A DNA stretch of 64,000 nt from Patescibacteria group bacterium (GCA_041650895.1 JBAZKF010000002.1:7967-71966), one strand, 5' to 3'. Positions 4,596 to 36,956 are shown, counted from the first letter of the stretch. The notes: generated by a model not told the origin, from the letters alone. Translations and numbers: made by a program.

Positions 4596-5030
4596 ATGTC
4601 GTTAGAAAATTCTGAAGCAAAACAAAAATTGTTTTTTAGATTTTTGTCGATTGTCGGCATCGTTATTATTTTACTTTTAGTTGTTTCTTTAATTCGCGAG
4701 GTAATTAATCGGAATAAGATTTCTTCGCGGATTAGTGATTTACAAACTCAAACTGATGATTTGAGAAGGCAGAATGACGATTTGCAATATAGGATAGATA
4801 ATTGGAATTCCACCAGCGAGTTGGAAACCAGCGCTCGCATTCAGTTGGGATTAAAGAAAGCAGGGGAGAAAGCTTTTGTAGTCATGCGGCCGGAGAATCT
4901 TGGTGTTTCAACCACTTCAATCGAGGAAGTAGTTATCAGGGATAATCAGGATTTATTGGAGTTGGTTGAAAATTCCAGTCAAGTTAAAGAATCAAATCCG
5001 GAGAAATGGTGGAGATATTTTTTTAACTAA
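4596..5030 (+). CDS. ftsB: Septum formation initiator FtsB/DivIC-like protein
   Basis: Short N-terminus, one TM helix, coiled-coil segment (DLQTQTDDLRRQNDDLQYRID) and C-terminal ELETSARIQLGLKKAGEKAFVV typical of the FtsB/DivIC family. Confidence 0.6.
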   Translation: MSLENSEAKQKLFFRFLSIVGIVIILLLVVSLIREVINRNKISSRISDLQTQTDDLRRQNDDLQYRIDNWNSTSELETSARIQLGLKKAGEKAFVVMRPENLGVSTTSIEEVVIRDNQDLLELVENSSQVKESNPEKWWRYFFN

Positions 5031-5058: not shown

Positions 5059-6618
5059 ATGCCTAAAAAATCTAACCTTTCCCCGGCAAAAAAGGCGCAA
5101 CTGAAGCAAGAAATAATGACTGCTTTAGAACCCAAGACCAGCCGGGCATCCAGTGAAAAAAATCCCACATCGGAGTCGGCGCCGACCAAAGCATTTGTTC
5201 TGGGGTCAATTAAGCCTAAGCCGATTTACCAAGTTAAGAGCGGGTTAGCTCAAATTAAAGCGACAGCAAAGCCTGTCTCGCCGATTGGCAGTCAGCCGGC
5301 AATAACAGCAGAAAAGATCCTGGCAGGTCAAACAGCATCCGTAAAAGCCAAGCCACTGTCCAAGGCCAAAGCCCAGAACGTCGTAATCGCAAAAACAAAA
5401 ATCAAACCGGCCAAAATAAAGAGAAATCCAGCTAAGTCGATTAAGCGAAAATCAAAAATCAAGCCAATAAAGCCGGCAGAGCCGGTAAGTGCTGTTTCTG
5501 CCATAAAAACTCCGGCTATTGCAAAAATTGTTACCAAGCCGGAAAAACACGCTTTTTCTTTCGGACCGCGTGTCGCCCCCGATTTATCTTGGGCTAAACC
5601 GAAGAAAGAAGAATCGTTAGAAAGCTTATTTAAACGTCCAGTGTCGCGATCAATGCAACCGGCTAAGGAGAAAGCCTTCTCAGTCGGCAAGGATGCGAGG
5701 AAAAAATCCCATCGCTGGATCAAATTATTAGTTTTTTTCCTTTTAGCCGTTGTTCTAGTAACAATTATTGATTTAATCGGCATTTATCGTTTCGGTTTTA
5801 ATGATTCAGTCAGCGTCGAGGCGGCTAAAGTTTTGCATTTGCCGGCAGGCAATGTGGACGGTCAGATGATTTCCTTGAGTGATTATTACAGTGATGCCAA
5901 ACTGTTAGACGCCGCCTTAGCCCAGAAGCGTGAAGGTTTGGATGTGTCATTATGGACTCAAGAAAATGACAAGATCTTTTATCGTTTAGCAGTAGAAGAA
6001 TTAATGGCTAAGGAACTCAAACGTTATAACAAATCAATTACCGATAAGGAATTAAATGAGAATTTGGACGCTCTGATTGCCCAAGCCGGATCGCGTGAAC
6101 AGGCCGAATCCATGGTACAAAGTAACTGGAATCTCACCCTGGAGCAATTTAAGGATAAAATCCTTAAACCGGTGATGATGCGGGAGTATCTGCGTGAGGC
6201 CATAGTAGGCGACGAGTCTTTACCGATAAGCCAAACGGCCAAGCAAGAAGCGGAGCAGGTGTTGAAATTAGCTTTAACCACGACCACTGCCACTACTACT
6301 GATTTTGCCGCCTTAGCCAAACAATATACCGATGATGAAGCGGGAGTGAATACGGGCGGAGAATTTGGCTGGGTGGTCAGAGGCCAACTTGATCCTCAAT
6401 GGGAGGACGTTTTATTCGGCGTCGCCACTAATACGGTTTATAAGCAATTGGTTAAAAGCCGCTACGGCTATCATATAATTAAAATTGAAGGCAAACTGAT
6501 AGACAAGACGACCGGCAAGGAAAGTATCAATTTGCGTCATATTTTGATTGAAGTCAATGTTGACCAGTATATCAAGAGTTTATTAGATAAAGCCAAGGTC
6601 GTTAGATATATCAAATAA
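5059..6618 (+). CDS. PpiC/parvulin-type peptidyl-prolyl isomerase (PrsA/SurA-like) with Lys/Ala/Pro-rich N-terminal low-complexity region and central TM helix
   Basis: C-terminal parvulin signature GGEFGWVVRGQLDPQWEDVLF...YGYHIIKIEG; TM helix LLVFFLLAVVLVTIIDLIGIY; N-terminal ~180 aa rich in K/A/P repeats. Confidence 0.65.
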   Translation: MPKKSNLSPAKKAQLKQEIMTALEPKTSRASSEKNPTSESAPTKAFVLGSIKPKPIYQVKSGLAQIKATAKPVSPIGSQPAITAEKILAGQTASVKAKPLSKAKAQNVVIAKTKIKPAKIKRNPAKSIKRKSKIKPIKPAEPVSAVSAIKTPAIAKIVTKPEKHAFSFGPRVAPDLSWAKPKKEESLESLFKRPVSRSMQPAKEKAFSVGKDARKKSHRWIKLLVFFLLAVVLVTIIDLIGIYRFGFNDSVSVEAAKVLHLPAGNVDGQMISLSDYYSDAKLLDAALAQKREGLDVSLWTQENDKIFYRLAVEELMAKELKRYNKSITDKELNENLDALIAQAGSREQAESMVQSNWNLTLEQFKDKILKPVMMREYLREAIVGDESLPISQTAKQEAEQVLKLALTTTTATTTDFAALAKQYTDDEAGVNTGGEFGWVVRGQLDPQWEDVLFGVATNTVYKQLVKSRYGYHIIKIEGKLIDKTTGKESINLRHILIEVNVDQYIKSLLDKAKVVRYIK

Positions 6619-9837: not shown

Positions 9838-9856
9838 TAGCAATAGCACTTTATTG

Positions 9857-9886
9857 GGATCAGTTTGACTGGTCCTTTTGTTTTTC
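9857..9886 (+). terminator. Rho-independent terminator
   Basis: GGATCAGT-ttg-ACTGGTCC hairpin followed by ttttgtttttctt. Confidence 0.5.
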
Positions 9887-9921
9887 TTGAATTTTAGCCA
9901 AGATTTTTGTATAATTATGGC

Positions 9922-10974
9922 ATGAACGATAATGATTTCATCATTTATTTTGGCGCTATTTTGCTGTCTTTCTTGTTGGCTGTCGGCCTGACTCCGTTAG
10001 TCAAACTGGTGGCCCGGCGTTTTGATATTATGGATAAACCGCAGACAGCCGAACGCAAGATCCATCATAATCCGGTGCCTTTTATGGGCGGTTGGGCGAT
10101 ATTTTTGTCGGTTTTTGTCGGCGTTTTTGTTTTTCAATTTTTTAATTTGGCGGATTTTTCTTTAATTAATGACCGCCTGTTATGGGGGATTTTTATTTCT
10201 TGCTTAATATTGATGATCGGTGGCACAATTGACGACAAATACAGTCTCAAACCGGAACAGCAGATATTTTTCCCCATTATCGCTGTTGTTGTTGTCTTAT
10301 TGTCGGGGTTGCATATAACTTTTATCACTAACCCCTTAAGCCAATCCGGAGCCATTCTGTTTATCGGTAAATATCTGGGCATAGCCATTGTATTCTTTTG
10401 GCTTTTGGGCATGGCTTATACTACTAAATTTTTGGACGGTTTGGACGGTTTGGTGGCCGGTATTGCCACTATCGCCGCCTTATTTATATTCTTAGTTTCT
10501 CTGCGTTGGGATACGGCTTTATCGGCGACAGGCATTTGGGCTTTGTTGCTTTTGGGGGCATCGCTTGGTTTTTTGATTTATAATTGGCGTCCGGCTTCAA
10601 TTTTTTTGGGCGAAGGAGGATCTGTATTTATCGGTTTTTTGTTGGGTATTTTATCCATCGTTTCCGGTTCTAAAATTATTACCACATTACTGGTGATGGG
10701 TTTGCCGGCCTTGGATGTTTTATTGGTGATTGTCCGTCGCTTGATTTCCGGCAAATCGCCGTTTGCCGGCGATCGCAATCATTTGCATTATCGTTTGCTT
10801 AATTTAGGTTTGTCGCACACCCAGGCGGTTTGGCTTCTGTGGCTGATCGCTTTGGCTTTTGGTTCGTTAGGCATTATTTCTACCAGTTACGGCAAAATGA
10901 TTTTAATCATCTGCTTGATGCTGGTGATGGCTATAATTTCCACCGCTTTATGGGTCAAGTCAAAAAAATCTTAG
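9922..10974 (+). CDS. Glycosyltransferase family 4 polyprenyl-phosphate sugar-1-phosphate transferase (WecA/TagO-like; MraY paralog)
   Basis: Multi-TM protein with the MraY/WecA motif KFLDGLDGLVAG; a separate mraY sits in the dcw cluster at 44484; ATG at 9922 preferred over the TTG at 9907. Confidence 0.75.
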   Translation: MNDNDFIIYFGAILLSFLLAVGLTPLVKLVARRFDIMDKPQTAERKIHHNPVPFMGGWAIFLSVFVGVFVFQFFNLADFSLINDRLLWGIFISCLILMIGGTIDDKYSLKPEQQIFFPIIAVVVVLLSGLHITFITNPLSQSGAILFIGKYLGIAIVFFWLLGMAYTTKFLDGLDGLVAGIATIAALFIFLVSLRWDTALSATGIWALLLLGASLGFLIYNWRPASIFLGEGGSVFIGFLLGILSIVSGSKIITTLLVMGLPALDVLLVIVRRLISGKSPFAGDRNHLHYRLLNLGLSHTQAVWLLWLIALAFGSLGIISTSYGKMILIICLMLVMAIISTALWVKSKKS

Positions 10975-11429: not shown

Positions 11430-12845
11430 ATGTTAAAGATTTACAACACCTTAACTAAGTCGCAGGAAGAATTCAAACCGCTCAAGAATAAACAGGTCGC
11501 TTTTTATCAATGCGGGCCGACCGTTTATTGGATTCAGCATATCGGCAATATGCGCGCCATGGTACTGGCCGACTTGATTTGTCGGTCGCTGGTTTATCTT
11601 GGCTATAAAGTGAAGTTTGCCCGGAACTATACTGATGTCGGTCACTTGACCAGTGACGAGGACGAGGGCGAGGACAAGATGATTAAAGCGTCTAAGCGCG
11701 AAGGACTAACGCCGGAGCAGATAGCCGATAAGTATATCGCGCAGTTTGAAACTGATGTGACTGACTTGAATTGCTTGCCTCCTGATTATAAACCACGAGC
11801 TACGGAATATATTAAGCAAATGCAAAAAATGGTGCAAGTGTTTTTGGATAAGGATTATGCTTACGCCACTGATTTGGCAATTTATTTTGATATTACCAAG
11901 GCCCGGGATTATACCAGGTTGTCCGGTCAGAAATTGGAAGAAAATCAGGCTGAAGCCGGTAGGGGCGAAGTGGGTGATTCGGGGAAGAAAAATTCGGCGG
12001 ATTTTGCCGTGTGGTTTTTTAAGGCGGGCGCGCACCAAAATGCCTTGCAGACTTGGCCGTACAAATTTAGTGTTCAAGATAAAATAATAGAGGGTGAGGG
12101 GTTTCCCGGTTGGCATCTGGAATGTTCGGCCATGAACTACAAGATTTTTGGTTCGACGATTGATTTGCATATGGGCGGTATCGAGCATGTGCCCGTGCAT
12201 CATACCAACGAGATTGCCCAAAGCGAAGCTTTTTCCGGCAAAAAATTTGTGGATTATTGGTTGCATAACGAGCATCTTAATGTTGATGGCGGCAAGATGA
12301 GCAAATCTGACGGCACGGCCTATTCGGTAGCCGATGTCAAAGCCAAAGGCTATGATCCGCTGGCCTTGCGTTATTTTTTCTTAGGCGCACATTATCGCAG
12401 TAAGCAGAATTTTACCTGGGAGGCGCTTGATGCCGCTCAATCCGCTTTGAATAATCTTCGCACGCAATTATTGTCATTCCGACCGAGCCGGCCGGACGGC
12501 GGGCGAGTGGATAAACCGCTTAAAAACAGATTCATCGCCGCTTTGGAAGACGATTTTAATATTCCTCAAGCCTTAGCGTTGGTTTGGGAAATACTCAAGG
12601 ACGACCTGCCTGATGCGGAAAAACATGCAACGATAATTGACTTTGATCAAGTTTTAGGTTTGGATTTATCGCAACTTAAAGCGGAAGAAATTCCCGCTGA
12701 AATAAAAACTCTCGCCGAGGCGCGTTGGCAGGCTCGACAAAGTAAAAATTGGGCAGAATCTGATCGTTTGCGTGACGAGTTATTGCAAGCTGGTTGGCAA
12801 ATGGAAGACGGCAAGAATGATTATAAGTTAAAAAAATCTAAATAA
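11430..12845 (+). CDS. cysS: Cysteine--tRNA ligase
   Basis: Class I aaRS HIGH-like motif (HIGNMRA), KMSKS motif, 471 aa with the CysRS anticodon-binding domain pattern. Confidence 0.95.
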   Translation: MLKIYNTLTKSQEEFKPLKNKQVAFYQCGPTVYWIQHIGNMRAMVLADLICRSLVYLGYKVKFARNYTDVGHLTSDEDEGEDKMIKASKREGLTPEQIADKYIAQFETDVTDLNCLPPDYKPRATEYIKQMQKMVQVFLDKDYAYATDLAIYFDITKARDYTRLSGQKLEENQAEAGRGEVGDSGKKNSADFAVWFFKAGAHQNALQTWPYKFSVQDKIIEGEGFPGWHLECSAMNYKIFGSTIDLHMGGIEHVPVHHTNEIAQSEAFSGKKFVDYWLHNEHLNVDGGKMSKSDGTAYSVADVKAKGYDPLALRYFFLGAHYRSKQNFTWEALDAAQSALNNLRTQLLSFRPSRPDGGRVDKPLKNRFIAALEDDFNIPQALALVWEILKDDLPDAEKHATIIDFDQVLGLDLSQLKAEEIPAEIKTLAEARWQARQSKNWAESDRLRDELLQAGWQMEDGKNDYKLKKSK

Positions 12846-12889
12846 AAAACACGGCTAAATCGTCGTGTTTGGTTAAAGTGCCTTCTAGC

Positions 12890-13105
12890 TTAACTTTTTC
12901 TTTTTCTCTTAATAGTTCTTTTAGCGGCTAACAGTGAATCACCGCGAAAACCAAGGAGCCTCAAACCGAAAATTATATTGCCATGGATTATATCTTCAAT
13001 ACTTCTAAAAGGGGTGACAGGCTCCCCAAAAAATCCCCTTTTATTATAGCAGTAATCAAGCCAGGTTTTTTCGCCATGCAAATTGATGAATTCTTCCTTA
13101 GTCAT
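12890..13105 (-). CDS. Hypothetical small protein (71 aa) with basic C-terminus (KRTIKRKRKS)
   Basis: Strong RBS GAAAGGAGG 6 nt upstream of the ATG (minus strand); no recognisable domain. Confidence 0.4.
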   Translation of the reverse strand: MTKEEFINLHGEKTWLDYCYNKRGFFGEPVTPFRSIEDIIHGNIIFGLRLLGFRGDSLLAAKRTIKRKRKS

Positions 13106-13170
13106 CAGTAGCCTCCTTTCCGTAGCGTTTTTAAAATTCAATTAATCCTTTCCTTGAATCAAATAATGTT

Positions 13171-13620
13171 TCAAGACCTCTTCACTCCTAATTCAGTAAG
13201 TATTCTCCAGAGATCGGCGGCAGATAAGAATATTTGCTCACCCCTCAACGATCGGGAATTAATTGATAGGGAATAAGCCGGCTGTGACCTGCCATCGACT
13301 ACTTCTAAGGTGTTTCTAATGAATCCGGCAATAATAGCTGTATCGCCAAAAAATCCCCCCTCAATTCCCTTATTGGCTCGGACAAATTGGAATTCAATTT
13401 TCCAATTACCGCCGGCAGTCTCCGCTTCCTTACCGACATTATTTCCTGTAGTGGCAATAAATTGCCGTACAGGAGCTTCTTCGTAGGTTACCTCCCACAT
13501 TAAGACAGATGGTTCGGCTTCGCACCATGCTTCAAATTTTCTAAATAACATGCTTCCCGATACGGTATTGTTAGTGACTTCAACCTTAGTAAAAGCTCTT
13601 TTGGAGATCTTGGAGTTCAT
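13171..13620 (-). CDS. Hypothetical protein (149 aa), no recognisable domain
   Basis: RBS GGGAGG upstream of the ATG at 13620 (minus strand); soluble, Gly-rich central region; co-oriented with the 71-aa gene. Confidence 0.5.
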   Translation of the reverse strand: MNSKISKRAFTKVEVTNNTVSGSMLFRKFEAWCEAEPSVLMWEVTYEEAPVRQFIATTGNNVGKEAETAGGNWKIEFQFVRANKGIEGGFFGDTAIIAGFIRNTLEVVDGRSQPAYSLSINSRSLRGEQIFLSAADLWRILTELGVKRS

Positions 13621-14134
13621 TATTAACCTCCCTTCGCTTATTCTTATTATCGGTTAGTGTTTATTCCAAGTTTTTTAAGTTTTAAGGTTCTTTTTGCTGA
13701 TTATTCAGTTTACTTAATAATAGTGAAAAAGTCAAGCCTGCGGTTAGCGGTAATTTTTGTCAATCTGCCTTATTAATCTTGCCAGCAATGCTGGCATGTT
13801 TTGGTATTTTAGTTCTGATTTACAGGTTATTTTTATCTTCTTTTATGCCCATAATTATTGCGCCCGCCACTATCAGGATAATTAAAATTATAATTATGAT
13901 ATTTATCATATTTTGCAAGTTAAAAAGTAATAGTTGACGCCGAATTATATTTTACAGAGAAAAGCGAATCTGGGAAAAACTCGAGCTGAGAGTTTTTCCG
14001 CATACTTGGTGTTAAACGATCCAAGCCCTGCCTACGTTATATGTTTTCAAAAGAAAAAGGCAGAGCGAGAGCGCAGCGTGGCTTTAGCGTATTTTTGAGA
14101 TTTTTTACATCGATTAAAGAAAAATTTCTATTCA

Positions 14135-15256
14135 TTAATAAGTCTCTTTTAGATACTCCTCTAACTTTTCCAATGCTTCTGGCATGTTTTTACGGGCAAA
14201 ACCAATTCTAAAGTAATTACCTTTGAAGTCATAAACTTTGGAGGGGAGCAACATTACTCCTTTCTTTTCAACAAGATCAAGGCAGAAGTCTGAAATATCA
14301 ATATTTGCTTTTAACGTCGGAAAGCCAATCGGCCCAGCCTTTGGTCTATGCCACTCAAAAAGTTTTGCGTGTTTGGCAAAAAATTCATCCAGTATTTTGA
14401 GATTGTTTTCAATAATCCCTATGTTTCTTTTGAGAATTTTATCTTTTGCTCTCAAAGCCATAATAGCCAAAATTTCACTCGGCGCGCTACTGCAAATAGT
14501 TGTGTAATCTTTGTAAGTAGCAAAACTTTTGAGTAAATCAGAATTTTTTGTAGTCAGCCAGCCAATTCTCAACCCAGCTAAAGCAAAACTTTTTGACATC
14601 CCGAATAGAGAAATGGCGTTATCATATAGGTCGCATGCTGATGAAGTCCGATTGGCTTGATCGTGTTCAAGAAATCTGTACATTTCATCAGAAAACACGA
14701 TGATATTTTTTTGCCTTGCTAAATCAATAATCTCTTTCAATTCTTTTTCTTGTAATGCTACTCCCGTTGGATTATGGGGAAAGTTTATGACGATGAGTTT
14801 TGTGTCATCTCTAATCAGGCTTTTGAGGTCGTCAATATCGAAAATCCAACCATTTTCATTTTTCGGTGTCCATTTTGATACTTTGCAACCGAGAGAATTC
14901 GCGATTTCATACAAAGATTGATAGCCCGGAAATGTGGTAACAACATGATCGTCTTTTTTAAGGAGATTATTCATGGCAATAAAAATTCCTTCTTCTGGTG
15001 TTATCACTAACACCTGTTCAGGTTTGATGTTTTGATGAAGCTTGGCAATCTCCTTGCGCAAAAGTGGATGTCCTTGAGATTCTGTGTAGCCGAGCTTGAG
15101 TTCGTTCCATAGTTTGAGCGAATTCTCGTCAGCCATTGCCAGAAGTTCTTTTTGGGTAAGAGCTTCGCAATCAGAACAAGACAATAAATAAGGAGCTGAA
15201 AACTCATATTTTGCGAAGTATCTTTCTAATTTGAATGGTTGGATTTTCATTATCAT
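14135..15256 (-). CDS. PLP-dependent aminotransferase, class I/II fold
   Basis: FPHNPTG motif, PLP-lysine context SKSFALAGLRIGW, 373 aa; AT-rich codon usage (A/T-ending codons) distinct from neighbouring core genes. Confidence 0.85.
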   Translation of the reverse strand: MIMKIQPFKLERYFAKYEFSAPYLLSCSDCEALTQKELLAMADENSLKLWNELKLGYTESQGHPLLRKEIAKLHQNIKPEQVLVITPEEGIFIAMNNLLKKDDHVVTTFPGYQSLYEIANSLGCKVSKWTPKNENGWIFDIDDLKSLIRDDTKLIVINFPHNPTGVALQEKELKEIIDLARQKNIIVFSDEMYRFLEHDQANRTSSACDLYDNAISLFGMSKSFALAGLRIGWLTTKNSDLLKSFATYKDYTTICSSAPSEILAIMALRAKDKILKRNIGIIENNLKILDEFFAKHAKLFEWHRPKAGPIGFPTLKANIDISDFCLDLVEKKGVMLLPSKVYDFKGNYFRIGFARKNMPEALEKLEEYLKETY

Positions 15257-15417
15257 AAAGTCAGAGGAGTGTATATAAAAATTTTTCTTAATTTCATATA
15301 ACTAGTGATTATACGAATTGTTTTCGCATAATATGTATATATTGATTATTTTACGAATAGTTGATATAATCAATTAGTATATAATAGTATATAAATTATA
15401 ACCTTTTTGTCTTATTT

Positions 15418-16233
15418 ATGCAAAATTATTTGGATAAAACAATAATTGAGCTAAAAATCAGGAATTATAGTCAAAAAACCATCAAGAGTTATATCCATTA
15501 TTTGGGTGACTTTCTAAATTTTGTTAATAGTGATCCTGTAGCGGTAAATTCTGCTAAAATTAAAGAATTTATTTTACTTAAGCAGGGGAGCGGCTATTCC
15601 TCCCAGACAGTTAATTTGTGCCTTAATGCCATTAAGTTTTTTTATCGCGAAATTCTAAAAAAACCTCAATATATTGATTTGAAATTAGCCAAAAAAAATA
15701 AGCGGTTGCCGGTGGTCTTGAGTCGGGGGGAAATAGATTTAATGATAAATAATACTGATAATGAAAAACATAAGTTGATCTTAGCTCTGGCATATGGCGC
15801 CGGTCTTAGGGTTAGCGAGGCGGTTAATTTAAAAATCAAAGACGTTTTTCTTGATGAATTGACGATTAAAGTGGATCAGGGCAAGGGCAGGAAAGACCGC
15901 CTGACGATTATGCCGGAAAAAATTAAAGGTAAATTGGCCGCACTTATCGGCAATCGCTCAGGCAACGAGTATCTGTTTGAGAGCGAACGCGGCGGCAAAT
16001 TGGCGGAAAGAACTTTGCAGGCGATTTTTGCTAAAGTGCTTGAAAAATCAAACATCAAGAAAGAAGCCACCTTTCATAGTTTGCGTCATAGTTTCGCCAC
16101 TCATTTGTTAGAAAACAGCACCGATGTCCGTTATGTGCAAGAACTTTTAGGGCATCAGAATATTCGCACTACGCAGATCTACACTCATGTTACTAATCCA
16201 AGTATTAGGAATATCAAGAGTCCCTTGGTATAA
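15418..16233 (+). CDS. Site-specific tyrosine recombinase (XerD/integrase family)
   Basis: Catalytic residues in GLRVSE (Arg), HSLRHSFATHLL (His-x-x-Arg), LGHQNIRTTQIYTHV (His, Tyr); 271 aa; AT-rich upstream region with short repeats. Confidence 0.85.
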   Translation: MQNYLDKTIIELKIRNYSQKTIKSYIHYLGDFLNFVNSDPVAVNSAKIKEFILLKQGSGYSSQTVNLCLNAIKFFYREILKKPQYIDLKLAKKNKRLPVVLSRGEIDLMINNTDNEKHKLILALAYGAGLRVSEAVNLKIKDVFLDELTIKVDQGKGRKDRLTIMPEKIKGKLAALIGNRSGNEYLFESERGGKLAERTLQAIFAKVLEKSNIKKEATFHSLRHSFATHLLENSTDVRYVQELLGHQNIRTTQIYTHVTNPSIRNIKSPLV

Positions 16234-16257
16234 CGCAAAAAATAATTAATTTAAAAA

Positions 16258-18819
16258 ATGACTGAAGATAAAATTATCATTCGCAATGCGCGAGTGCACA
16301 ACTTAAAGAATATCTCGTTGGAAATACCGCATAACAAACTGACGGTAATGACCGGCGTATCCGGCAGCGGCAAGTCGTCGTTGGCTTTTGATACGATTTT
16401 TGCCGAAGGTCAAAGGCGTTATATTGAATCGCTATCGCCTTATGCTCGGCAGTTTTTGGGTCAGATGAAGCCGGCTGATGTGGATGAAATTATCGGTTTG
16501 GCGCCGGCCATCAGCATTGACCAAAAAGCCTTGTCGCATAATCCTCGCTCTACTGTTGGCACTTTGACTGAGATTTACGATTATTTGCGTGTCCTATACG
16601 CTCGCTTAGGTGAAGTATTTTGCCCTGTTTGTGGCACCAAGATCGCTAAAATGTCTTTAGATGAAATGATAGAAATCATCAAGAATAAAGCCGAAGAATC
16701 AGGCACGGACAACGTTAGGATTTTGTCGCCAGTGGTGGTGGATAGAAAAGGTGAATACTATCAGATGCTTTATGACTTTCTGGCCTTAGGCTTCAGTGAA
16801 GCGCGCGTTGACGGCAAGATTTATCCGTTACGCGAGCGTATTAATCTGGCTAAAAATAAAAAACACTCCATTGATGTCGTTATTGACAAGGTCAGGATAG
16901 CGGATGAGTCGCGCCTGACTGAGGCCGTGGAAAGCGCTCTGGATCATGCTAAGGGTTTGGTGCGCGTGATGTTTGATCAGAAAGATGAAGAATCAATAGA
17001 AATCCTATTGTCTTCCAATTGGACCTGTCCCAATGACGGTTTTGCTTTTCCCGAAGTAGAACCGCGCCTGTTTTCGTTCAATAGCCCGCATGGCGCTTGT
17101 CCCGAATGCCACGGCTTGGGCCGGAAGGAAAAATGGGTGGAGAGGGAAAGGACCGATGAAGATGATGATGGCAATAAATACGAACGTATAGTGGAGGAGT
17201 GCCTGACTTGCCACGGTTTGCGTTTAAATGAAAACGCCTTGTCGGTGCGGGTTAACAGCAAGAACATCGCCGAGACCTCGGCTTTATCGCTGGATAAGGC
17301 CCATAAGTTTTTTTCCGAGTATTACAATAAGATGAGTGAACGGCAGAAAACCATCGGCGAGACCGTAGTCTATGAAATCAGCGCTCGCTTGGATTTTTTG
17401 CTTAAGGTCGGTTTGAATTATTTGACATTGGATCGCGAGGCGGAAACATTGTCCGGCGGTGAGGCTCAGAGAATCCGTCTGGCCTCCCAGATCGGCTCGC
17501 ATTTGTCGCATACTTTATATGTACTTGATGAGCCGACTATCGGCTTGCACGAAAGGGATACGGAAAAACTGATCGAAACCCTAAAATCATTAAAAGATCA
17601 AAATAATACCGTTATCGTAGTGGAACATGACGAGCGGACGATCATGGCTTCGGATTATCTGGTAGACTTGGGGCCTTTGGCCGGACGCCATGGCGGGGAA
17701 GTGTCGGCTATCGGAGAAACCAAAAAATTACTCAAAGGCAAAGATTACCCTGATTCTTTGACGCTACAATATTTACGCGGTGAAAAAGAAATCAATCTGG
17801 ATCGCAGTCGCCGGATCAAGGAAGCGGAAGCGATTAAGGTCATCGGCGCCAAGATCAATAATTTGAAAAATATTGATGTGGAGTTTCCTTTGCGGAAATT
17901 AATTGTCATTACCGGCGTCTCCGGTAGTGGCAAATCAACTTTGCTCTATGACGCCTTATATGAAAATTTATTGAAAATCAAGCACGGCTTTCGGAAAGAA
18001 ATCAGGGGTGTGGCCAAAATTATCGGCAGTGAATATGTTAATAAAGTAATCATTGTTAATCAGTCGCCCATCGGCCGGACGCCACGGAGCAATCCCGCCA
18101 CTTATACCGGAATTTTTACCCCGATTCGCGAATTTTTTGCCCAACTGCCGGCCAGCCGCGAGCGCGCTTATACTGCTTCGCGTTTTTCTTTCAATCGCCC
18201 GGGCGGACGTTGCGAGTCCTGCAATGGCGCCGGATTCAATCTAATTGAAATGCATTTTTTGCCGGCTGTACTGGTGGAATGCGAGGTTTGTCGCGGCAAG
18301 AGATTCAACCGCGAGACATTGCAAGTCAAATATAAGAACAAAAACATCGCCGAAGTTTTGCAACTGACGATTGATGAGGCGATTGATTATTTTGACGGCC
18401 AGTATCTGATTACCGATAAATTGAAAGTTTTGCAAGAAGTCGGCCTGGGTTATTTGCAGTTGGGCCAATCGGCCACCACCCTTTCTGGCGGGGAAGCGCA
18501 GAGAATTAAACTGGCTCGCGAATTGACGCACACCTTGGGCGCTAAGACTCTGTATTTGTTGGACGAGCCCTCGGTCGGTTTGCATTATCATGATATAGAG
18601 CTGTTGCTTAAAGCTTTGAATAAGCTGATTGATAAAGGCAATAGTGTGGTTTTGATTGAACATAATATGCATATCATCAAAGAAGCGGACTGGGTGATTG
18701 ACCTGGGTCCGGAAGGCGGGGATAATGGCGGTAAAGTTGTGGCCAAGGGTACGCCGGAACAGCTCACCGGCGCGAAAAACTGTTTGACCGGGGATTATTT
18801 AAGGAAGTATTTGAAATAA
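16258..18819 (+). CDS. uvrA: Excinuclease ABC subunit A (UvrA), short form with reduced insertion domain
   Basis: Two ABC modules ([18 protein letters not shown]; LSGGEAQRI twice) and zinc-finger CxxC pairs; 853 aa against the ~940 aa norm, with only ~30 aa between CPECHGLG and CLTCHG where the insertion domain sits. Confidence 0.9.
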
Positions 18820-33639: not shown

Positions 33640-35175
33640 TTATGCTGGGATTTCCAGTTCGAAGGCTCCGTCCACTATTGGGACGAAAGCGCCCTGCCAG
33701 ACTACTCTGACCAGATCGGCGTCAGCGTATTGAATCCCGTTTGGATGCTGAGAGTTAATCGGAACATCGCCGATTAACACGAAACGCAAGTTTGGGGCAC
33801 GGAATTTACTCAACTCAATGGTTGAAATGGAATCATCCACCGGCGCCCAATCCTGGTCAATCCAAGGTGCTCCGCCGGCGATGAAGTAGTACTCCACGCC
33901 GACTTGATTGACGTCATGATTGAAAAGCGTAGGAAACAAGGATGGCGGACAGAACATTCGAGCAGTCAGACTGGAATCGGAATTCTGGCTGATCACCAAA
34001 TAGGCTAGCGGCTCATCGCTTACTACCAGCACTCGCTGAACGGCGACGGTTTGATTACCGGCCGCATCGCTGACTTGATAATTGATGACGTAATGCCCAA
34101 AACCGCCGGTATCAATATCGGCCACCTCGCTGTTGCCGCCTTGACCGTCATATTGGTAGGTATGGCGAATGACAGCGCCGGTCAGATCGCCATCAACATC
34201 GTCGCTGGCCGAGTAAGGTGTTCCTGCAAAGCCGGGGTCGCCGATTTGGAAGAATACTGTTTCACCGTAAAGCGACAAGTCAATCACTGGTGGCGTCGTA
34301 TCCGTGCCGTCCGATACCGATAAAAAGGCATGATCGGTCTCGGCAGTGCCATAGGCGTTACTGATAACGAAATAGTAGCTCCAGCCGTCATCAGTCAAGG
34401 TAACTGCCGCGGATAAGCCGAATTCCAATGGCAATTGGTCAAGGGGGCCGGATTGCGTTCCAATCTCTTCAATCGTTGCGCCCTTGGATCGGTATGAGCG
34501 GTAAGCGAAGGGCGGTGAGCCCAACACTTGGCAATTGAAGGAAGCGATCGTTCCCGCAATCGCATTTACCGCTTGGGGTTGTTGAGTTACTTGCGGTATG
34601 CAAGTATTGACTGTTAAAAAAGCACTGTTACTGATTGCTTCTCCGGCCCCATTACTCACAACGCAAAAGTACGTCCGAGCGTCAGTCATGAGGGGGTACT
34701 GGATTTCAAAAGTCGGCAGAGTAGCGCCATCAATCGGCGGCTCTAAGACACTTTTTTCCTCGCAATCCTCTCCACCCTTGCATTTTTCTTTTTTATACCA
34801 CTGGTAATGCAGATTTTCACCGGTGGTGACAACGGTAAAAGAGGCCTTATTAAACCCCTCACTAACCGTTGCCGATTTTGGGTGTTCAATAATCGTCGGC
34901 GGCGCTTCCTCGCCTTCGCCTTCACCCTCGCCTTCACCCTCGCCTTCACCCTCGCCTTCAGCGGGGTTCCCCACGCAGAAACCGTCTTCGGTTCCGGCGC
35001 CTGGGCAGGCGTAGTAACTGCCGATATTAAAGATCTGGATCACGCGCAGAAGTTCCGACAGGGAAATCGCGTTGTCCTGATTGACGTCGGCCGAGTGATA
35101 CGGGCCGGTGGCGAAGGCCGGCAATGGCAACATAACAATCATAGTGAGGATTAGGGGAAGAGCATACTTTTTCAT
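33640..35175 (-). CDS. Secreted surface protein with (GE)n linker, Ig-like domains and DUF5011-like domain
   Basis: Signal peptide; dockerin/EF-hand-like DVNQDNAISLSELLRV; EGEGEGEGEGEGEGEGEE linker; Ig-like strands (HYQWYKKE..., YFCVVSNGAGEAISNSAFLTV); GDPGFAGTPYSASDDVDGDLTG resembles the DUF5011 PGATA-D-DGD motif. Confidence 0.6.
   Translation of the reverse strand: MKKYALPLILTMIVMLPLPAFATGPYHSADVNQDNAISLSELLRVIQIFNIGSYYACPGAGTEDGFCVGNPAEGEGEGEGEGEGEGEGEEAPPTIIEHPKSATVSEGFNKASFTVVTTGENLHYQWYKKEKCKGGEDCEEKSVLEPPIDGATLPTFEIQYPLMTDARTYFCVVSNGAGEAISNSAFLTVNTCIPQVTQQPQAVNAIAGTIASFNCQVLGSPPFAYRSYRSKGATIEEIGTQSGPLDQLPLEFGLSAAVTLTDDGWSYYFVISNAYGTAETDHAFLSVSDGTDTTPPVIDLSLYGETVFFQIGDPGFAGTPYSASDDVDGDLTGAVIRHTYQYDGQGGNSEVADIDTGGFGHYVINYQVSDAAGNQTVAVQRVLVVSDEPLAYLVISQNSDSSLTARMFCPPSLFPTLFNHDVNQVGVEYYFIAGGAPWIDQDWAPVDDSISTIELSKFRAPNLRFVLIGDVPINSQHPNGIQYADADLVRVVWQGAFVPIVDGAFELEIPA
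34906..34962. repeat. Tandem 12-nt/6-nt repeat (ctcgccttcacc)n encoding the (GE)n linker
   Basis: Seen directly: cctcgccttcgccttcaccctcgccttcaccctcgccttcaccctcgccttcagc; in-frame within the Ig-like gene. Confidence 0.7.
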
Positions 35176-35267
35176 CTCTAGGTTCTCCTTGCCTTGCGGC
35201 TTTGTCTGTTGTTTTTTTGTTTTTAAGGGACTTTTAATCTAAGCAGTGTTGCTCAAACTAATATATA

Positions 35268-35296
35268 ATTATAGCAAATTACTATAATATTGTCAA
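35268..35296 (-). promoter_or_regulatory. Consensus sigma70 promoter TTGACA-N17-TATAAT (minus strand) for Ig-like protein 1
   Basis: Minus-strand reading gives TTGACAatattatagtaatttgcTATAAT; ~85 nt upstream of the ATG at 35175. Confidence 0.6.
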
Positions 35297-35396
35297 TAGC
35301 TAATAATTATTTTATCTAATTTTAGATAAAAAAAGAGTGGCAACGGGTTTAATCGTGGCCACTCCGTGGTGGAAAGTGCTACTGACTTAGACGGTC

Positions 35397-36770
35397 TTAG
35401 ACGGTGGCTTGGAAAGCCCAATTGCCGTTCCCGTCATTGACGAGCGGTATGGTCGCTCCGTCTAGGGTAACCGTTACCGTGTCATTGGCGACGAATCCGC
35501 CACTGGAAGCGTTGGTGACCACCGAGAACCGGATGGTTCGGCTGACACCGACTCGAAACTTGGCGACGGTTCCATTGGCTATCCCCGCGGACGAAACAGA
35601 GAAACATTCCCGTTCAATCCAGGGACTGCTGGGCTGGTAGAGTTCCAGTCCAATAAGTCCGTTGGCCGGCGCGTTCGTGGCCGAAAAATACAGGTAACTG
35701 CCATTCCACGTCAAGGCGATTTTCAAATCGCTGGTGGGAGCGACACTGCCAACAATGATCGTCCGCGTAACCGACGCCTGATTGCCGCTGTTGTCGCTAG
35801 CGGAGTAGGTGACATAGTAAGTTCCGGTAATCGTCGTATTGACGCTGCCGGACACCATGATTTTGTAGATGGGACCGTCTACAGCGTCTATGGCCGTGGC
35901 CCCAGGATCAATCCAGGAACCGCCCACCGACAAATAGATCGTGGAAGCGCCGTTAAGCGTAATGACCGGCGGCGTGATGTCGCCGGTTGAACCGCCGGTA
36001 ACGGTCAGAATGGCCGGATTGGAATAAACCGATCCCTGGCTATTCCAGACCTTGCAGCGATAGGCGCCCTCGTTGATTTCTCCGACGGAGTAAATCGTCA
36101 GACTTGCCGAATTGACTCCGCCCGAATACTGGTTGGGCGTGATATCAATCCCGTTATCCTGCCAGCAGTATTTCAGATTACCGCCGGTGGCGCCAACCGT
36201 GAATTGTACTTGCTGGCCGATATTGGCCGACAAAGAATCGGGCTGATCGGTGATAACGGGAGCAGTTTCGCCCTCGCCTTCTCCTTCGCCCTCGCCGGAC
36301 CAATCGGTTGCCATCAGGCAGGACTTTTGCGCCGTCCAAGTCGTAATGCCGACGCCCTCGCTATTGCGATAGCCGACGCCGGCATCAAAGATCAGGCCGA
36401 AGCGCGAACCGTCCAGAGTCATCTTAACGCTGGCACGATTGGAACCCTTCTGCCAGACTCGCGGGGCCGAAGTTTCGGGATCGGCGCCGGTCTTGCTGAT
36501 CGTCCAGTCGAACGGGATTGTCCTACCGCTACCAAAAACGGTGTCCACATTCCATATGGCATAGTCCGCCTCGACGTAATCAATGGGCATATTGGCCTCA
36601 TTGGTCAAATCGACGGACCCCAAGTAGTAATCCTCATCTCGCGCGTCATCCGCGCGGACGTAGAAGTCGCCGGAAACGATCAGTTTATCCGGCATACAAC
36701 CGGTGAGACCGATGGCCGACAGGGCCAGCAAAGCAACCAGAAACAATGATACCTTACGCATGGGACGCAT
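35397..36770 (-). CDS. Secreted lipoprotein with (GE)n linker, Ig-like domain and DUF5011-like domain (paralog of 33640-35175)
   Basis: Lipobox LTGC after the MRPMRKVSLFLVALLALSAIG signal; GEGEGEGEGE linker; Ig-like YRCKVWNSQGSVYSNPAILTV; IDPGATAIDAVDG DUF5011-like motif; start at AAGGAG-proximal Met. Confidence 0.6.
   Translation of the reverse strand: MRPMRKVSLFLVALLALSAIGLTGCMPDKLIVSGDFYVRADDARDEDYYLGSVDLTNEANMPIDYVEADYAIWNVDTVFGSGRTIPFDWTISKTGADPETSAPRVWQKGSNRASVKMTLDGSRFGLIFDAGVGYRNSEGVGITTWTAQKSCLMATDWSGEGEGEGEGETAPVITDQPDSLSANIGQQVQFTVGATGGNLKYCWQDNGIDITPNQYSGGVNSASLTIYSVGEINEGAYRCKVWNSQGSVYSNPAILTVTGGSTGDITPPVITLNGASTIYLSVGGSWIDPGATAIDAVDGPIYKIMVSGSVNTTITGTYYVTYSASDNSGNQASVTRTIIVGSVAPTSDLKIALTWNGSYLYFSATNAPANGLIGLELYQPSSPWIERECFSVSSAGIANGTVAKFRVGVSRTIRFSVVTNASSGGFVANDTVTVTLDGATIPLVNDGNGNWAFQATV
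36287..36316. repeat. Short GC-rich hexanucleotide tandem repeat encoding the (GE)n linker
   Basis: ttcgccctcgccttctccttcgccctcgcc, in-frame in the second Ig-like gene. Confidence 0.6.
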
Positions 36771-36956
36771 GGGCTTAACTCCTTTTTGTTTTCCCGCCTT
36801 AGCGGTACGAATTTGCCCTAAGATTGGGGGCGACAACATTGCCGCTTACCCGTTTACTTGAGTTAGCGGCACACAGTGTCGCCTTCTCCTTTTCCAAGCT
36901 TACTCCCTATTTTCAACGTTCTTGCATCAATTAGGACTGTCCTAACTTGATATATC

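Follow-up and report, generated by a model that had tools for sequence, protein, structure and literature searches.

Between cysS and uvrA, in a 64,000-nt stretch of DNA from a Patescibacteria group bacterium (called the window throughout), lies an AT-rich islet that encodes a tyrosine recombinase (Int), a class I aminotransferase (AT) and two small proteins (p149 and p71) and that includes a noncoding gap. What is this islet, and how were its genes acquired? The original prediction took it for a discrete integrated element that had arrived with its own integrase. Comparison with related loci leads us to a different answer: the islet reads as the variable cargo side of a fixed chromosomal module of recombinase and site, not as a self-contained mobile element, and the region is probably the cargo array of a sedentary integron-like gene-capture platform. 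This reading would account for the AT-rich patch and marks the aminotransferase as a recent import. The window is contained in a metagenome contig of 101 kb (ENA ERZ27247363 k141_1831822) and, judged by its closest genomes, the host appears to be a member of Candidatus Buchananbacteria.

The spacer between AT and Int contains a conserved site. Its most prominent part is a 25-bp palindrome made of two inverted TTATRCGAA half-sites, which is found once in the window (0.03 occurrences are expected by chance), is kept in six relatives (L006, L007, L014, L092, L102, and L119), and persists with variants in most others. A third half-site lies inside the spacer of the Int promoter, an arrangement that is also conserved, and we presume all three to be putative Int-binding sites. 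The short direct repeats TTATACGAATTGTT and TTTTACGAATAGTT, which had been noticed upstream of the recombinase gene, are genuine and belong to this conserved site. Adjoining the palindrome, ~116 nt upstream of Int, is a junction that reads CTA^GTTATATGAAAT on the cargo-coding (minus) strand (^ marks the break point) and resembles a GTTRRRY core site. The complete motif is present ~96 to 142 nt upstream of the Int start in ~33 of 36 relatives, with the consensus TTTYRCnTAAC^TCGTTTTTATGCGAAnTGTTTTCGYATAA. A profile built from 29 junctions, with the window and L006 left out, gave one match in the 64 kb (15291-15333, E 2.5e-6), matched the L006 site (E 6e-5) and a relic in L007, and found nothing in 0.45 Mb of loci around distant recombinases. 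A LexA (SOS-box) identity of the palindrome was considered and rejected: it accompanies Int whatever the downstream gene and is absent upstream of uvrA in relatives that lack Int.

Sequence exchange at this site is recorded to the nucleotide. Three independent pairs of near-identical contigs diverge at the equivalent junction nucleotide. L179 and L006, a pair from the sister lineage of the window, are 100.000% identical over 5600 nt and 99.94% identical over 7934 nt on the two sides, and their sole difference is a 1175-nt insert, with two ORFs and a complex hairpin element, exactly at ...CATAAC^TAGCG.... The insertion point in L179 reads ...GATTTCACATAAC^TAGCGCTTATGCGAA..., and the insert ends in ...GATTTTGCAGAAC^. 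L101 and L121 share 96 to 97% identity for 8.9 kb on the Int side and are unrelated outward from the same junction nucleotide; L090 and L091 agree fully (100%) on the Int side, and their identity drops to 31% beyond the junction. All three break points lie 5 to 7 nt beyond the left arm of the palindrome, outside the palindrome itself. L120 carries a 187-nt structured element exactly between an L090-like left flank and the junction. Contig ends tell a similar story. Two contigs (L106 and L061) start at the junction or within a few nucleotides of it, and 19 of the 39 metagenome loci that form our set of Int relatives (Int identity of at least 50%) end no more than ~520 nt from the 5′ side of Int, contigs of 50 to 75 kb among them, versus six at the 3′ side. 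Such an excess is expected if the population carries alternative flanks. Systematic breaks of metagenome assemblies at this site bear on how complete the metagenome-assembled genomes of these organisms are and on the recovery of accessory genes. The first 120 nt of L061 (Moraniibacteriota) are a case of their own: the contig begins exactly at AAC^TCGTTTTTATGCGAAC and has the promoter and the third half-site, with no Int ORF after them and rpsF-ssb-rpsR-efp instead, an orphan site combined with an assembly break at the junction.

These break points bear on an alternative in which illegitimate recombination and deletion, with no dedicated mechanism, keep an ordinary intergenic region variable and the motif is the promoter or operator of Int and nothing more. 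The window, with its one site, decayed boundaries and absence of repeats, would suit that explanation, as would the third half-site, whose place in the promoter spacer is compatible with autoregulation. The explanation is hard to reconcile with three independent break points that coincide, to the nucleotide, at one conserved position, and with contigs that start exactly at the junction, and we consider it improbable.

Int itself is a resident of the chromosome. Synonymous divergence (dS) between the window and L006 is 0.81 for Int, 0.82 for UvrA, and 0.71 for CysS; Int therefore was inherited vertically with its neighbors. Its dN/dS of 0.078 in the same comparison indicates purifying selection. 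The gene lies 3 to 24 bp upstream of uvrA in L006, L179, L039, L014, L033, and L107, and in other lineages it is directly followed by def-fmt, miaA (twice), a miaB-like gene, tgt, trmD, prs, or an ABC transporter gene, so the module is embedded in core operons. In L120 (3216-5944), the gene after Int is trmD, and a 16S rRNA gene lies 1.2 kb downstream of the recombinase gene; a platform can thus adjoin an rRNA operon. A phage origin of Int was examined and discarded, viral contigs offering only distant relatives of at most 34% identity over the full length.

Residency counts against the arrival in the cysS-uvrA interval of a small mobile islet with integrase and cargo of its own. The lower GC, the presence of an integrase, and the adjacency of cysS and uvrA in L009, L011, and L012 all speak for such an islet. 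Yet att-like direct or inverted repeats, sought at the islet borders as had been suggested, are absent there, Int has the dS of the flanking core genes and sits 3 to 24 bp from uvrA in six lineages, and cargo changes while Int stays; in L007 it is Int that was deleted and the cargo that was kept. Absence of boundary repeats, fixation of Int, and core-like dS are also what separate the locus from a classical integrative element. We regard the mobile-islet explanation as largely refuted and very unlikely. Conserved synteny had been named as the observation that would speak against mobility: it holds for the recombinase, and it does not extend to the cargo, which turns over at a defined site. The broader claim that the interval is accessory and horizontally supplied stands, for cargo differs among close relatives.

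Relatives retrieved by way of UvrA keep the gene order FtsX-GT4-DUF192-CysS-x-UvrA-p225-C39-Rrf2-NifU, and it is x that varies. It is empty, at 0.37 to 0.55 kb, in L009, L011, and L012, and spans 1.4 kb in L008, 2.8 kb in L006, 3.4 kb in the window, and 5.7 kb in L007. All cargo genes are on the strand opposite Int in the window, L006, L007, L014, L039, and L179, and the nearest upstream gene is divergent from Int in ~14 to 15 of 17 further Int loci. An Int-distal block (a hydrophobic mini-ORF, p149 and a p71-like gene) is common to the window, L006, and L179, and partly to L007. The Int-proximal genes are AT in the window, a 102-aa membrane protein in L006, methyltransferases in L014, DUF5680 and GNAT proteins in L039, and HIT, GNAT, metallophosphoesterase, and two unknown proteins in L007. 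Further cargo at related platforms comprises type III and HpaII restriction–modification systems, an OLD/AbiEii-like ATPase, an HNH nuclease, and GNAT, HIT, and NUDIX proteins, which by their families look like typical accessory or defense material. In L007 the Int ORF is cleanly gone from upstream of uvrA, and the Int-upstream region and the cargo remain. The same locus (5681-5916 and 9856-10000) has, within the array, a second Int-upstream site with promoter; it is fused to a piece from the interior of cysS that corresponds to window positions 12383-12496 (88.6% identity). This double site looks like the scar of a duplication or deletion involving the site.

The aminotransferase occupies the first, Int-proximal cargo position and adjoins the junction. 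It matches PDB 3OP7 (E 2e-67) and contains an SKS lysine motif; among NCBIfam models, PRK07324 comes first (320 bits, under the 476 cutoff), followed by GntC (275) and VioD (217). AT would accordingly belong to the class I/II pyridoxal phosphate (PLP) enzymes of the PRK07324/3OP7 family, with GntC and VioD more distant. It has more than 7999 relatives, and the named ones are mostly from Bacteroidota, at 65 to 75% identity. Positions 14064-15258 of the window are 88.1% identical in DNA sequence to contigs (GC 0.325) in which AT lies between a beta-lactamase and a TonB-dependent receptor, a context typical of Bacteroidota. Because dS between the two AT copies (0.58) is lower than that between core genes of the host and L006 (0.71-0.82), and L006 lacks AT, the gene arrived after the split from L006. 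AT thus is a recent import from another phylum, from a low-GC source of Bacteroidota type, in line with a horizontal supply of the interval.

The boundaries of the AT unit can be partly traced. The segment specific to the window relative to L006 is 13915-15282, and the unit starts with GTTATATGAAAT, which is also the start motif in L006, L179, L039, L014, and L105. In its 3′ tail, 71 nt (14064-14134) were cotransferred with AT and contain a truncated 32-aa ORF. The Bacteroidota-type contigs (L171, 3965-4144) have a 59-aa ORF overlapping AT, ~the first 24 codons of which are kept in the window (14037-14135, minus strand); this truncation marks the left end of the transferred DNA. The box CATATAAC, 91 nt past the AT stop (minus strand; plus-strand positions 14037-14044), is R′′-like; it repeats the start box, an 8-mer of the junction, in inverted form and matches the R′′ box of L179 exactly. 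Past this box, the other 120 nt of the tail form, as single-stranded DNA, a modest fold of three small hairpins (−19.9 kcal/mol, z −3.1), with neither a single long palindrome nor a clear R′ box in this tail. L179 holds an intact counterpart, and the tail may be read as a decayed attC-like region.

That counterpart is part of the L179 insert, whose cassette-like units start with GTTGTGC, GTTATATGAAAT, and GTTATGTGAAAT. On the cargo strand, the insert proceeds from a hairpin and a three-way structured element through GTTGTGCGAC... to a 112-aa ORF, continues with ...CACACAAC..., GTAAC^GTTATATGAAAT... and a 100-aa ORF, and closes with ...CATATAAC-ACGTTTTAG...CTAAAACGG-TAAC^GTTATGTGAAAT..., after which the 102-aa ORF of L006 follows. 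Its last inter-ORF segment (5586-5712) is one long bulged palindrome closed by CATATAAC and GTTATGTG; it folds with −26 kcal/mol (z −3.8, 0 of 200 shuffles as good) and appears to have the shape of an attC site. Comparable structures occur elsewhere: L113 (117-245) has GCCTAAC...GTTAGGC, that is CGCCTAAC...GTTAGGCG, with a TATGCGAA half-site inside, and L105 has two identical 155-nt structured elements around a single 137-aa ORF (single-stranded fold −65.8 kcal/mol, z −11.2).

Simpler hairpins fall into two types. Type i, GTTTTC-GGAGCGATAGCGGA-GAAAAC^ACCTTAT, adjoins unrelated cargo ORFs; type ii has a long variable stem and the invariant loop GAGGGGTYAGGGGTGAAT, continues with AAAAC^TCCTTATT, stands directly 3′ of unrelated cargo ORFs, and has no match in Rfam. 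Under strict definitions, nine distinct hairpins of these types occur in 0.30 Mb of Int loci (the search gave 11 overlapping regular-expression matches, of which three are longer, nested versions of others). They share one strand, occur on the cargo side only, and are absent from 1.34 Mb of uvrA-anchored loci. A third kind of element, GC-rich, 155 to 190 nt long and abutting the junction, is built of three hairpins; its loops contain GCGAAGC or GCGTAGC motifs, its arms repeat the TATGCGAA half-site, and it seems to behave like an ORF-less cassette. Motifs of the d(GCGAAGC) type form unusually stable DNA mini-hairpins, and their frequency in the loops hints at single-stranded substrates.

Hairpins of this sort raise the question of whether HUH enzymes of the IS200/IS605 or REP/RAYT kind, targeting ...TAAC, move the hairpin-bounded units while Int is a bystander with the target in its promoter region. 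Insertion 3′ of a short specific sequence without target duplication would be typical of them, as would subterminal hairpins with stable mini-hairpin loops. No HUH transposase was found among the cargo examined, however, the target and the Int-type half-sites are conserved together with Int over ~35 lineages, the half-site recurs in the complex hairpin elements, and the strict hairpins are confined to Int loci. HUH mobilization seems to us highly improbable.

The family of Int leaves a stronger competitor. Int is the sole tyrosine recombinase in the window and retains a full set of catalytic residues (R in LRVSE, K in GKGRKDR, HxxR at 220-223, H246, and Y255). The top NCBIfam match is XerA_Arch, a "site-specific tyrosine recombinase/integron integrase" (230 bits, cutoff 220); the integron integrase model TIGR02249 scores 211 bits, under its cutoff of 265, and the XerC and XerD models are far under theirs. 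Ranked by sequence, its best relatives in the PDB are VchIntIA (158.6 bits, in two pieces), XerA (147 and 145), and XerD (85). Residues 172 to 195 align across VchIntIA 176 to 242, and identity to IntI1 is 30% from end to end except for a gap of ~42 residues at IntI1 196 to 250, which is the additional domain. By these comparisons Int falls into an IntI/XerA-like "candidate phyla" clade, which numbers over 5600 proteins of ~270 aa in Patescibacteria; many of these come from contigs of 1 to 2 kb. The clade is almost certainly the "Cand" subgroup of simple, Xer-related tyrosine recombinases, which is confined to candidate phyla and viewed as a Xer substitute (Smyshlyaev et al. 2021, PMC8138268); affinity and host range agree, whereas no site or cargo association was assigned to the subgroup in that work, where housekeeping of a Xer-like kind is proposed for it.

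Int could accordingly be a Xer chromosome-dimer resolvase and the palindrome its dif, as in XerS/difSL, with the variable genes being exploiters akin to integrative mobile elements exploiting Xer (IMEX) or an unrelated hotspot. Much is in keeping with this: Int passes the XerA model with its catalytic residues intact, its family is nearly ubiquitous among Patescibacteria and is taken to stand in for Xer, it is resident, under purifying selection and in housekeeping operons, and the palindrome has the 10-5-10 shape of a core site. Like XerA of Archaea and XerS of streptococci, Int is a simple two-domain recombinase (~270-290 aa) that has no arm-binding domain and a palindromic core-type site directly beside its gene; difSL, too, is immediately beside xerS. 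Unlike those sites, the Int site is not at a GC-skew switch: skew keeps its sign across it (+0.095 to the left and +0.088 to the right, measured over tens of kb), the cumulative curve climbs monotonically through the 64 kb, L006 and L033 behave alike, and 20 other loci show no consistent switch. The scars, moreover, are beside the palindrome, 5 to 7 nt past its left arm, not in the spacer where IMEX integration at dif would place them, and a turnover-prone cargo array lies alongside. With IMEX and integrase-linked defense islands the locus shares a host recombinase and cognate site as entry point and an accumulation of restriction–modification and defense genes. It differs from IMEX in its inserted units: these have GTT/AAC boxes and hairpins at their borders instead of duplicated dif-like sites, and they are often single small ORFs with hairpin ends. 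Dimer resolution by itself is in our judgment unlikely; Int may combine it with service to a capture platform.

For the integron-like platform that we favor, the following course of events is proposed. Int would be expressed from its own promoter and would probably bind the three TTATRCGAA half-sites, one of them within that promoter and two a little upstream of it, exchanging strands at the adjacent AAC^T junction (15302^15303). Incoming DNA would enter beside Int and be read in the direction leading away from it, which would leave the newest unit closest to Int and older units further out. In the window, the AT unit (~13915-15302) would then be the newest acquisition and the mini-ORF/p149/p71 block an older one, shared with sister lineages and with decayed boundaries. 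We infer that Int is the enzyme responsible, that it binds and cleaves at the positions given, and that single-stranded hairpins are its partner sites.

The likeness to integrons is extensive. In both, the recombinase gene diverges from a one-directional array read away from it, here judged from gene orientation, and insertion takes place at an attI-like site upstream of the recombinase, ~100 to 140 nt from its start (for comparison, the distance is ~140 nt from the intI1 start in intI1-attI1-aadA1 of R100). GTTRRRY/RYYYAAC-like boxes mark the unit boundaries, a bulged imperfect palindrome closes at least some of the units, the newest unit adjoins the recombinase, and the cargo consists of small unknown proteins, GNATs, and defense genes. 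Read on the cargo strand, the junction is (C)ATAAAAACGA^GTTAGGC, similar to the simple site of attI1, CCCTAAAACAAAG^TTA, and the top PDB relative of Int is an integron integrase, VchIntIA. There are also differences. Int scores under the integron-integrase cutoff and has no IntI-specific insertion, many of the partner hairpins have opposite polarity (GTT...AAC), conserved loops, or the three-hairpin architecture, and the putative accessory binding sites form a palindrome that overlaps the promoter of Int itself.

Several observations weigh against this reading. Int lacks the ~40-residue IntI-specific domain, on which attC recombination by canonical integron integrases depends. Given the size of its family in Patescibacteria and the view of that family as standing in for Xer (PMC8138268), Int probably has housekeeping duties, at least partly. 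Of the AAC-NN-GTT dyad, the right half reads GTG in the window and GCG in L006. Further copies of the palindrome, half-site, cassette-start motif, and hairpin loops were sought in the window, and the Int-proximal site alone was found; a search of the window for an intact attC-like hairpin and for the hairpin types of relatives gave none. The hairpin sites are heterogeneous, with three types in addition to palindromes of classic polarity, and a generic scan for AAC...GTT palindromes was unspecific (six on the cargo side, 13 on the other), so that no support is drawn from it. The Bacteroidota-type AT locus has no cassette features that would account for the capture of the AT DNA. Finally, ~40 loci were examined, by sequence comparison alone.

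A wider proposition, to which we give somewhat less than even credence, is that such platforms occur across the phylum Patescibacteria, each with a minimal IntI/XerA-type recombinase devoid of the IntI domain, an attI-like site beside the recombinase promoter, and single-strand hairpin partners. If so, they could be a living relative of the transition from Xer to integron and a main route by which these tiny genomes obtain defense and accessory genes, the cross-phylum aminotransferase included. They would also provide a concrete mechanism for the horizontal transfer and the restriction–modification islands that have been described in Patescibacteria without a recombinase mechanism being named (PMC12455944). 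An integrase with a special extra domain is regarded as the defining feature of integrons. Those on record from Bacteria and from Archaea all possess this IntI domain (PMC9668308, PMC9024848). In the part of the literature accessible to us on integrons or recombinase-linked islands in Patescibacteria (Candidate Phyla Radiation, CPR), no integron is reported from the phylum and the present arrangement is not described. The abundant Xer-like recombinases of CPR organisms have hitherto been assumed to be housekeeping enzymes, and a small, domain-poor recombinase would be useful for studying how integron recombination originated from Xer-type enzymes.

Features of the islet, its site, and hairpin elements of related loci (positions in the window unless a locus is named; ^, break point)
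Feature	Position	Strand	Remarks
CysS	11430-12845	+	
p71 ORF, 71 aa	12890-13105	-	83 aa if upstream TTG start used; AAGGAGG upstream
p149 ORF, 149 aa	13171-13620	-	GGGAGG upstream
Gap, 515 bp	13621-14134		Between p149 and AT
Hydrophobic mini-ORF, 29 codons	13820-13909	-	In 515-bp gap
AT-unit 3′ tail	13915-14134	-	Ends ...TTTTTAAC^ at 13915
Hairpin GGAAAAACTC/GAGTTTTTCC	13973-13999		In 515-bp gap
AT, 373 aa	14135-15256	-	Pfam Aminotran_1_2, E 9e-43
Spacer, 161 bp			Between AT and Int; strongly AT-rich
Junction TTTCATATAAC^TAGTG	15291-15307		AAC-NN-GTx dyad 15300-15307; break point 15302^15303
Palindrome ATTATACGAA-TTGTT-TTCGCATAAT, 25 bp	15308-15332		Two inverted TTATRCGAA half-sites
Int promoter TTGATT-17-TATAAT	15342-15370	+	10/12 match, TG extension
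Third half-site TTTTACGAAT	15349-15358		Inside Int promoter spacer; arrangement conserved
Int, 271 aa	15418-16233	+	Phage_integrase and Phage_int_SAM_4; stop 24 bp before uvrA
UvrA	16258-18819	+	
GAGGGGTYAGGGGTGAAT-loop hairpins	L014 3813-3863; L087 5588-5638; L090 1393-1510; L095 1295-1347; L100 ~673-735; L102 260-310; L112 359-480 and ~6380-6440; L113 325-379		
GC-rich three-hairpin elements, 155-190 nt	L105 228-388 and 970-1123; L120 2054-2240; L099 3280-3466; L179 6590-6775		Abutting junction

All features listed in the original prediction (genes, gap, mini-ORF, hairpin, and repeats) were found again, including the ribosome-binding sites of p71 and p149; the hairpin exists, with coordinates that differ by a few nucleotides from the 13966-13996 first given. 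The lower GC ascribed to the segment is true in part. GC per kilobase is 0.345 to 0.378 over 13 to 16 kb versus 0.438 for the whole window, and the p71 (0.369), AT (0.369), and Int (0.375) genes lie below the mean of 0.445 (SD 0.039; z ~−1.8 to −2.0). The p149 gene (0.433, z −0.3) does not deviate, and two further window genes, at 4596-5030 and 52021-52272, are as low as the islet genes. The lowest trough (0.23-0.28) is the Int promoter region. The dip in the islet is real, yet modest and uneven. No tRNA and no known RNA family was found by tRNA and Rfam searches around the islet.

The older, Int-distal block appears to open with the mini-ORF, which the sister genome keeps (29 aa, 76% identity, dN/dS 0.27 over 29 codons) and which is called as a 29-aa gene in L179. 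The family of p149 is narrow, with six relatives in 5.8e9 proteins and 12 cluster representatives in 1.84e9. Amino acid identity is 66 to 68% where that of CysS and UvrA is 86 to 96%, and dN/dS is 0.12 to 0.15, values that point to a real gene, fast-evolving and under purifying selection. An AlphaFold2 (AF2) model (pLDDT 70) predicts a helix, a four-stranded sheet, and a helix; a structure comparison, which had been recommended for both small proteins, returned no significant or specific fold match for this model, and the single-sequence AF2 model of p71 (pLDDT 55) was unusable. An 887-aa protein, P0252, has 13 repeats that match residues 98 to 129 of the p149 profile, which suggests that the C-terminal beta-hairpin of p149 is a repeatable module. 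p71 has a basic C terminus, and divergent counterparts adjoin p149 in L006 (96 aa) and L007 (62 aa). Neither protein matched a family in Pfam, NCBIfam, PHROGs, or PADLOC, a PHROG match of p71 at E 0.004 being taken as noise. A defense role for the cargo of the window, which had been put forward, is unsupported, PADLOC having no match for p149 and p71; AT gave weak matches to the DndA/SspA models (E ~1e-5), consistent with shared ancestry of PLP enzymes.

Three further observations concern the surroundings of the islet. The 44-bp gap between the convergent cysS and p71 genes contains a short hairpin, AAACACG...CGTGTTT (12847-12869), probably a terminator common to both. A second compositional outlier is formed by two neighboring high-GC genes (33640-36839; GC 0.52-0.56, z +2 to +3), which encode surface proteins with Ig-like domains. 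UvrA is just 853 aa long in the window and its relatives; a typical bacterial UvrA has ~940 aa, and a domain may be absent from the shorter protein.

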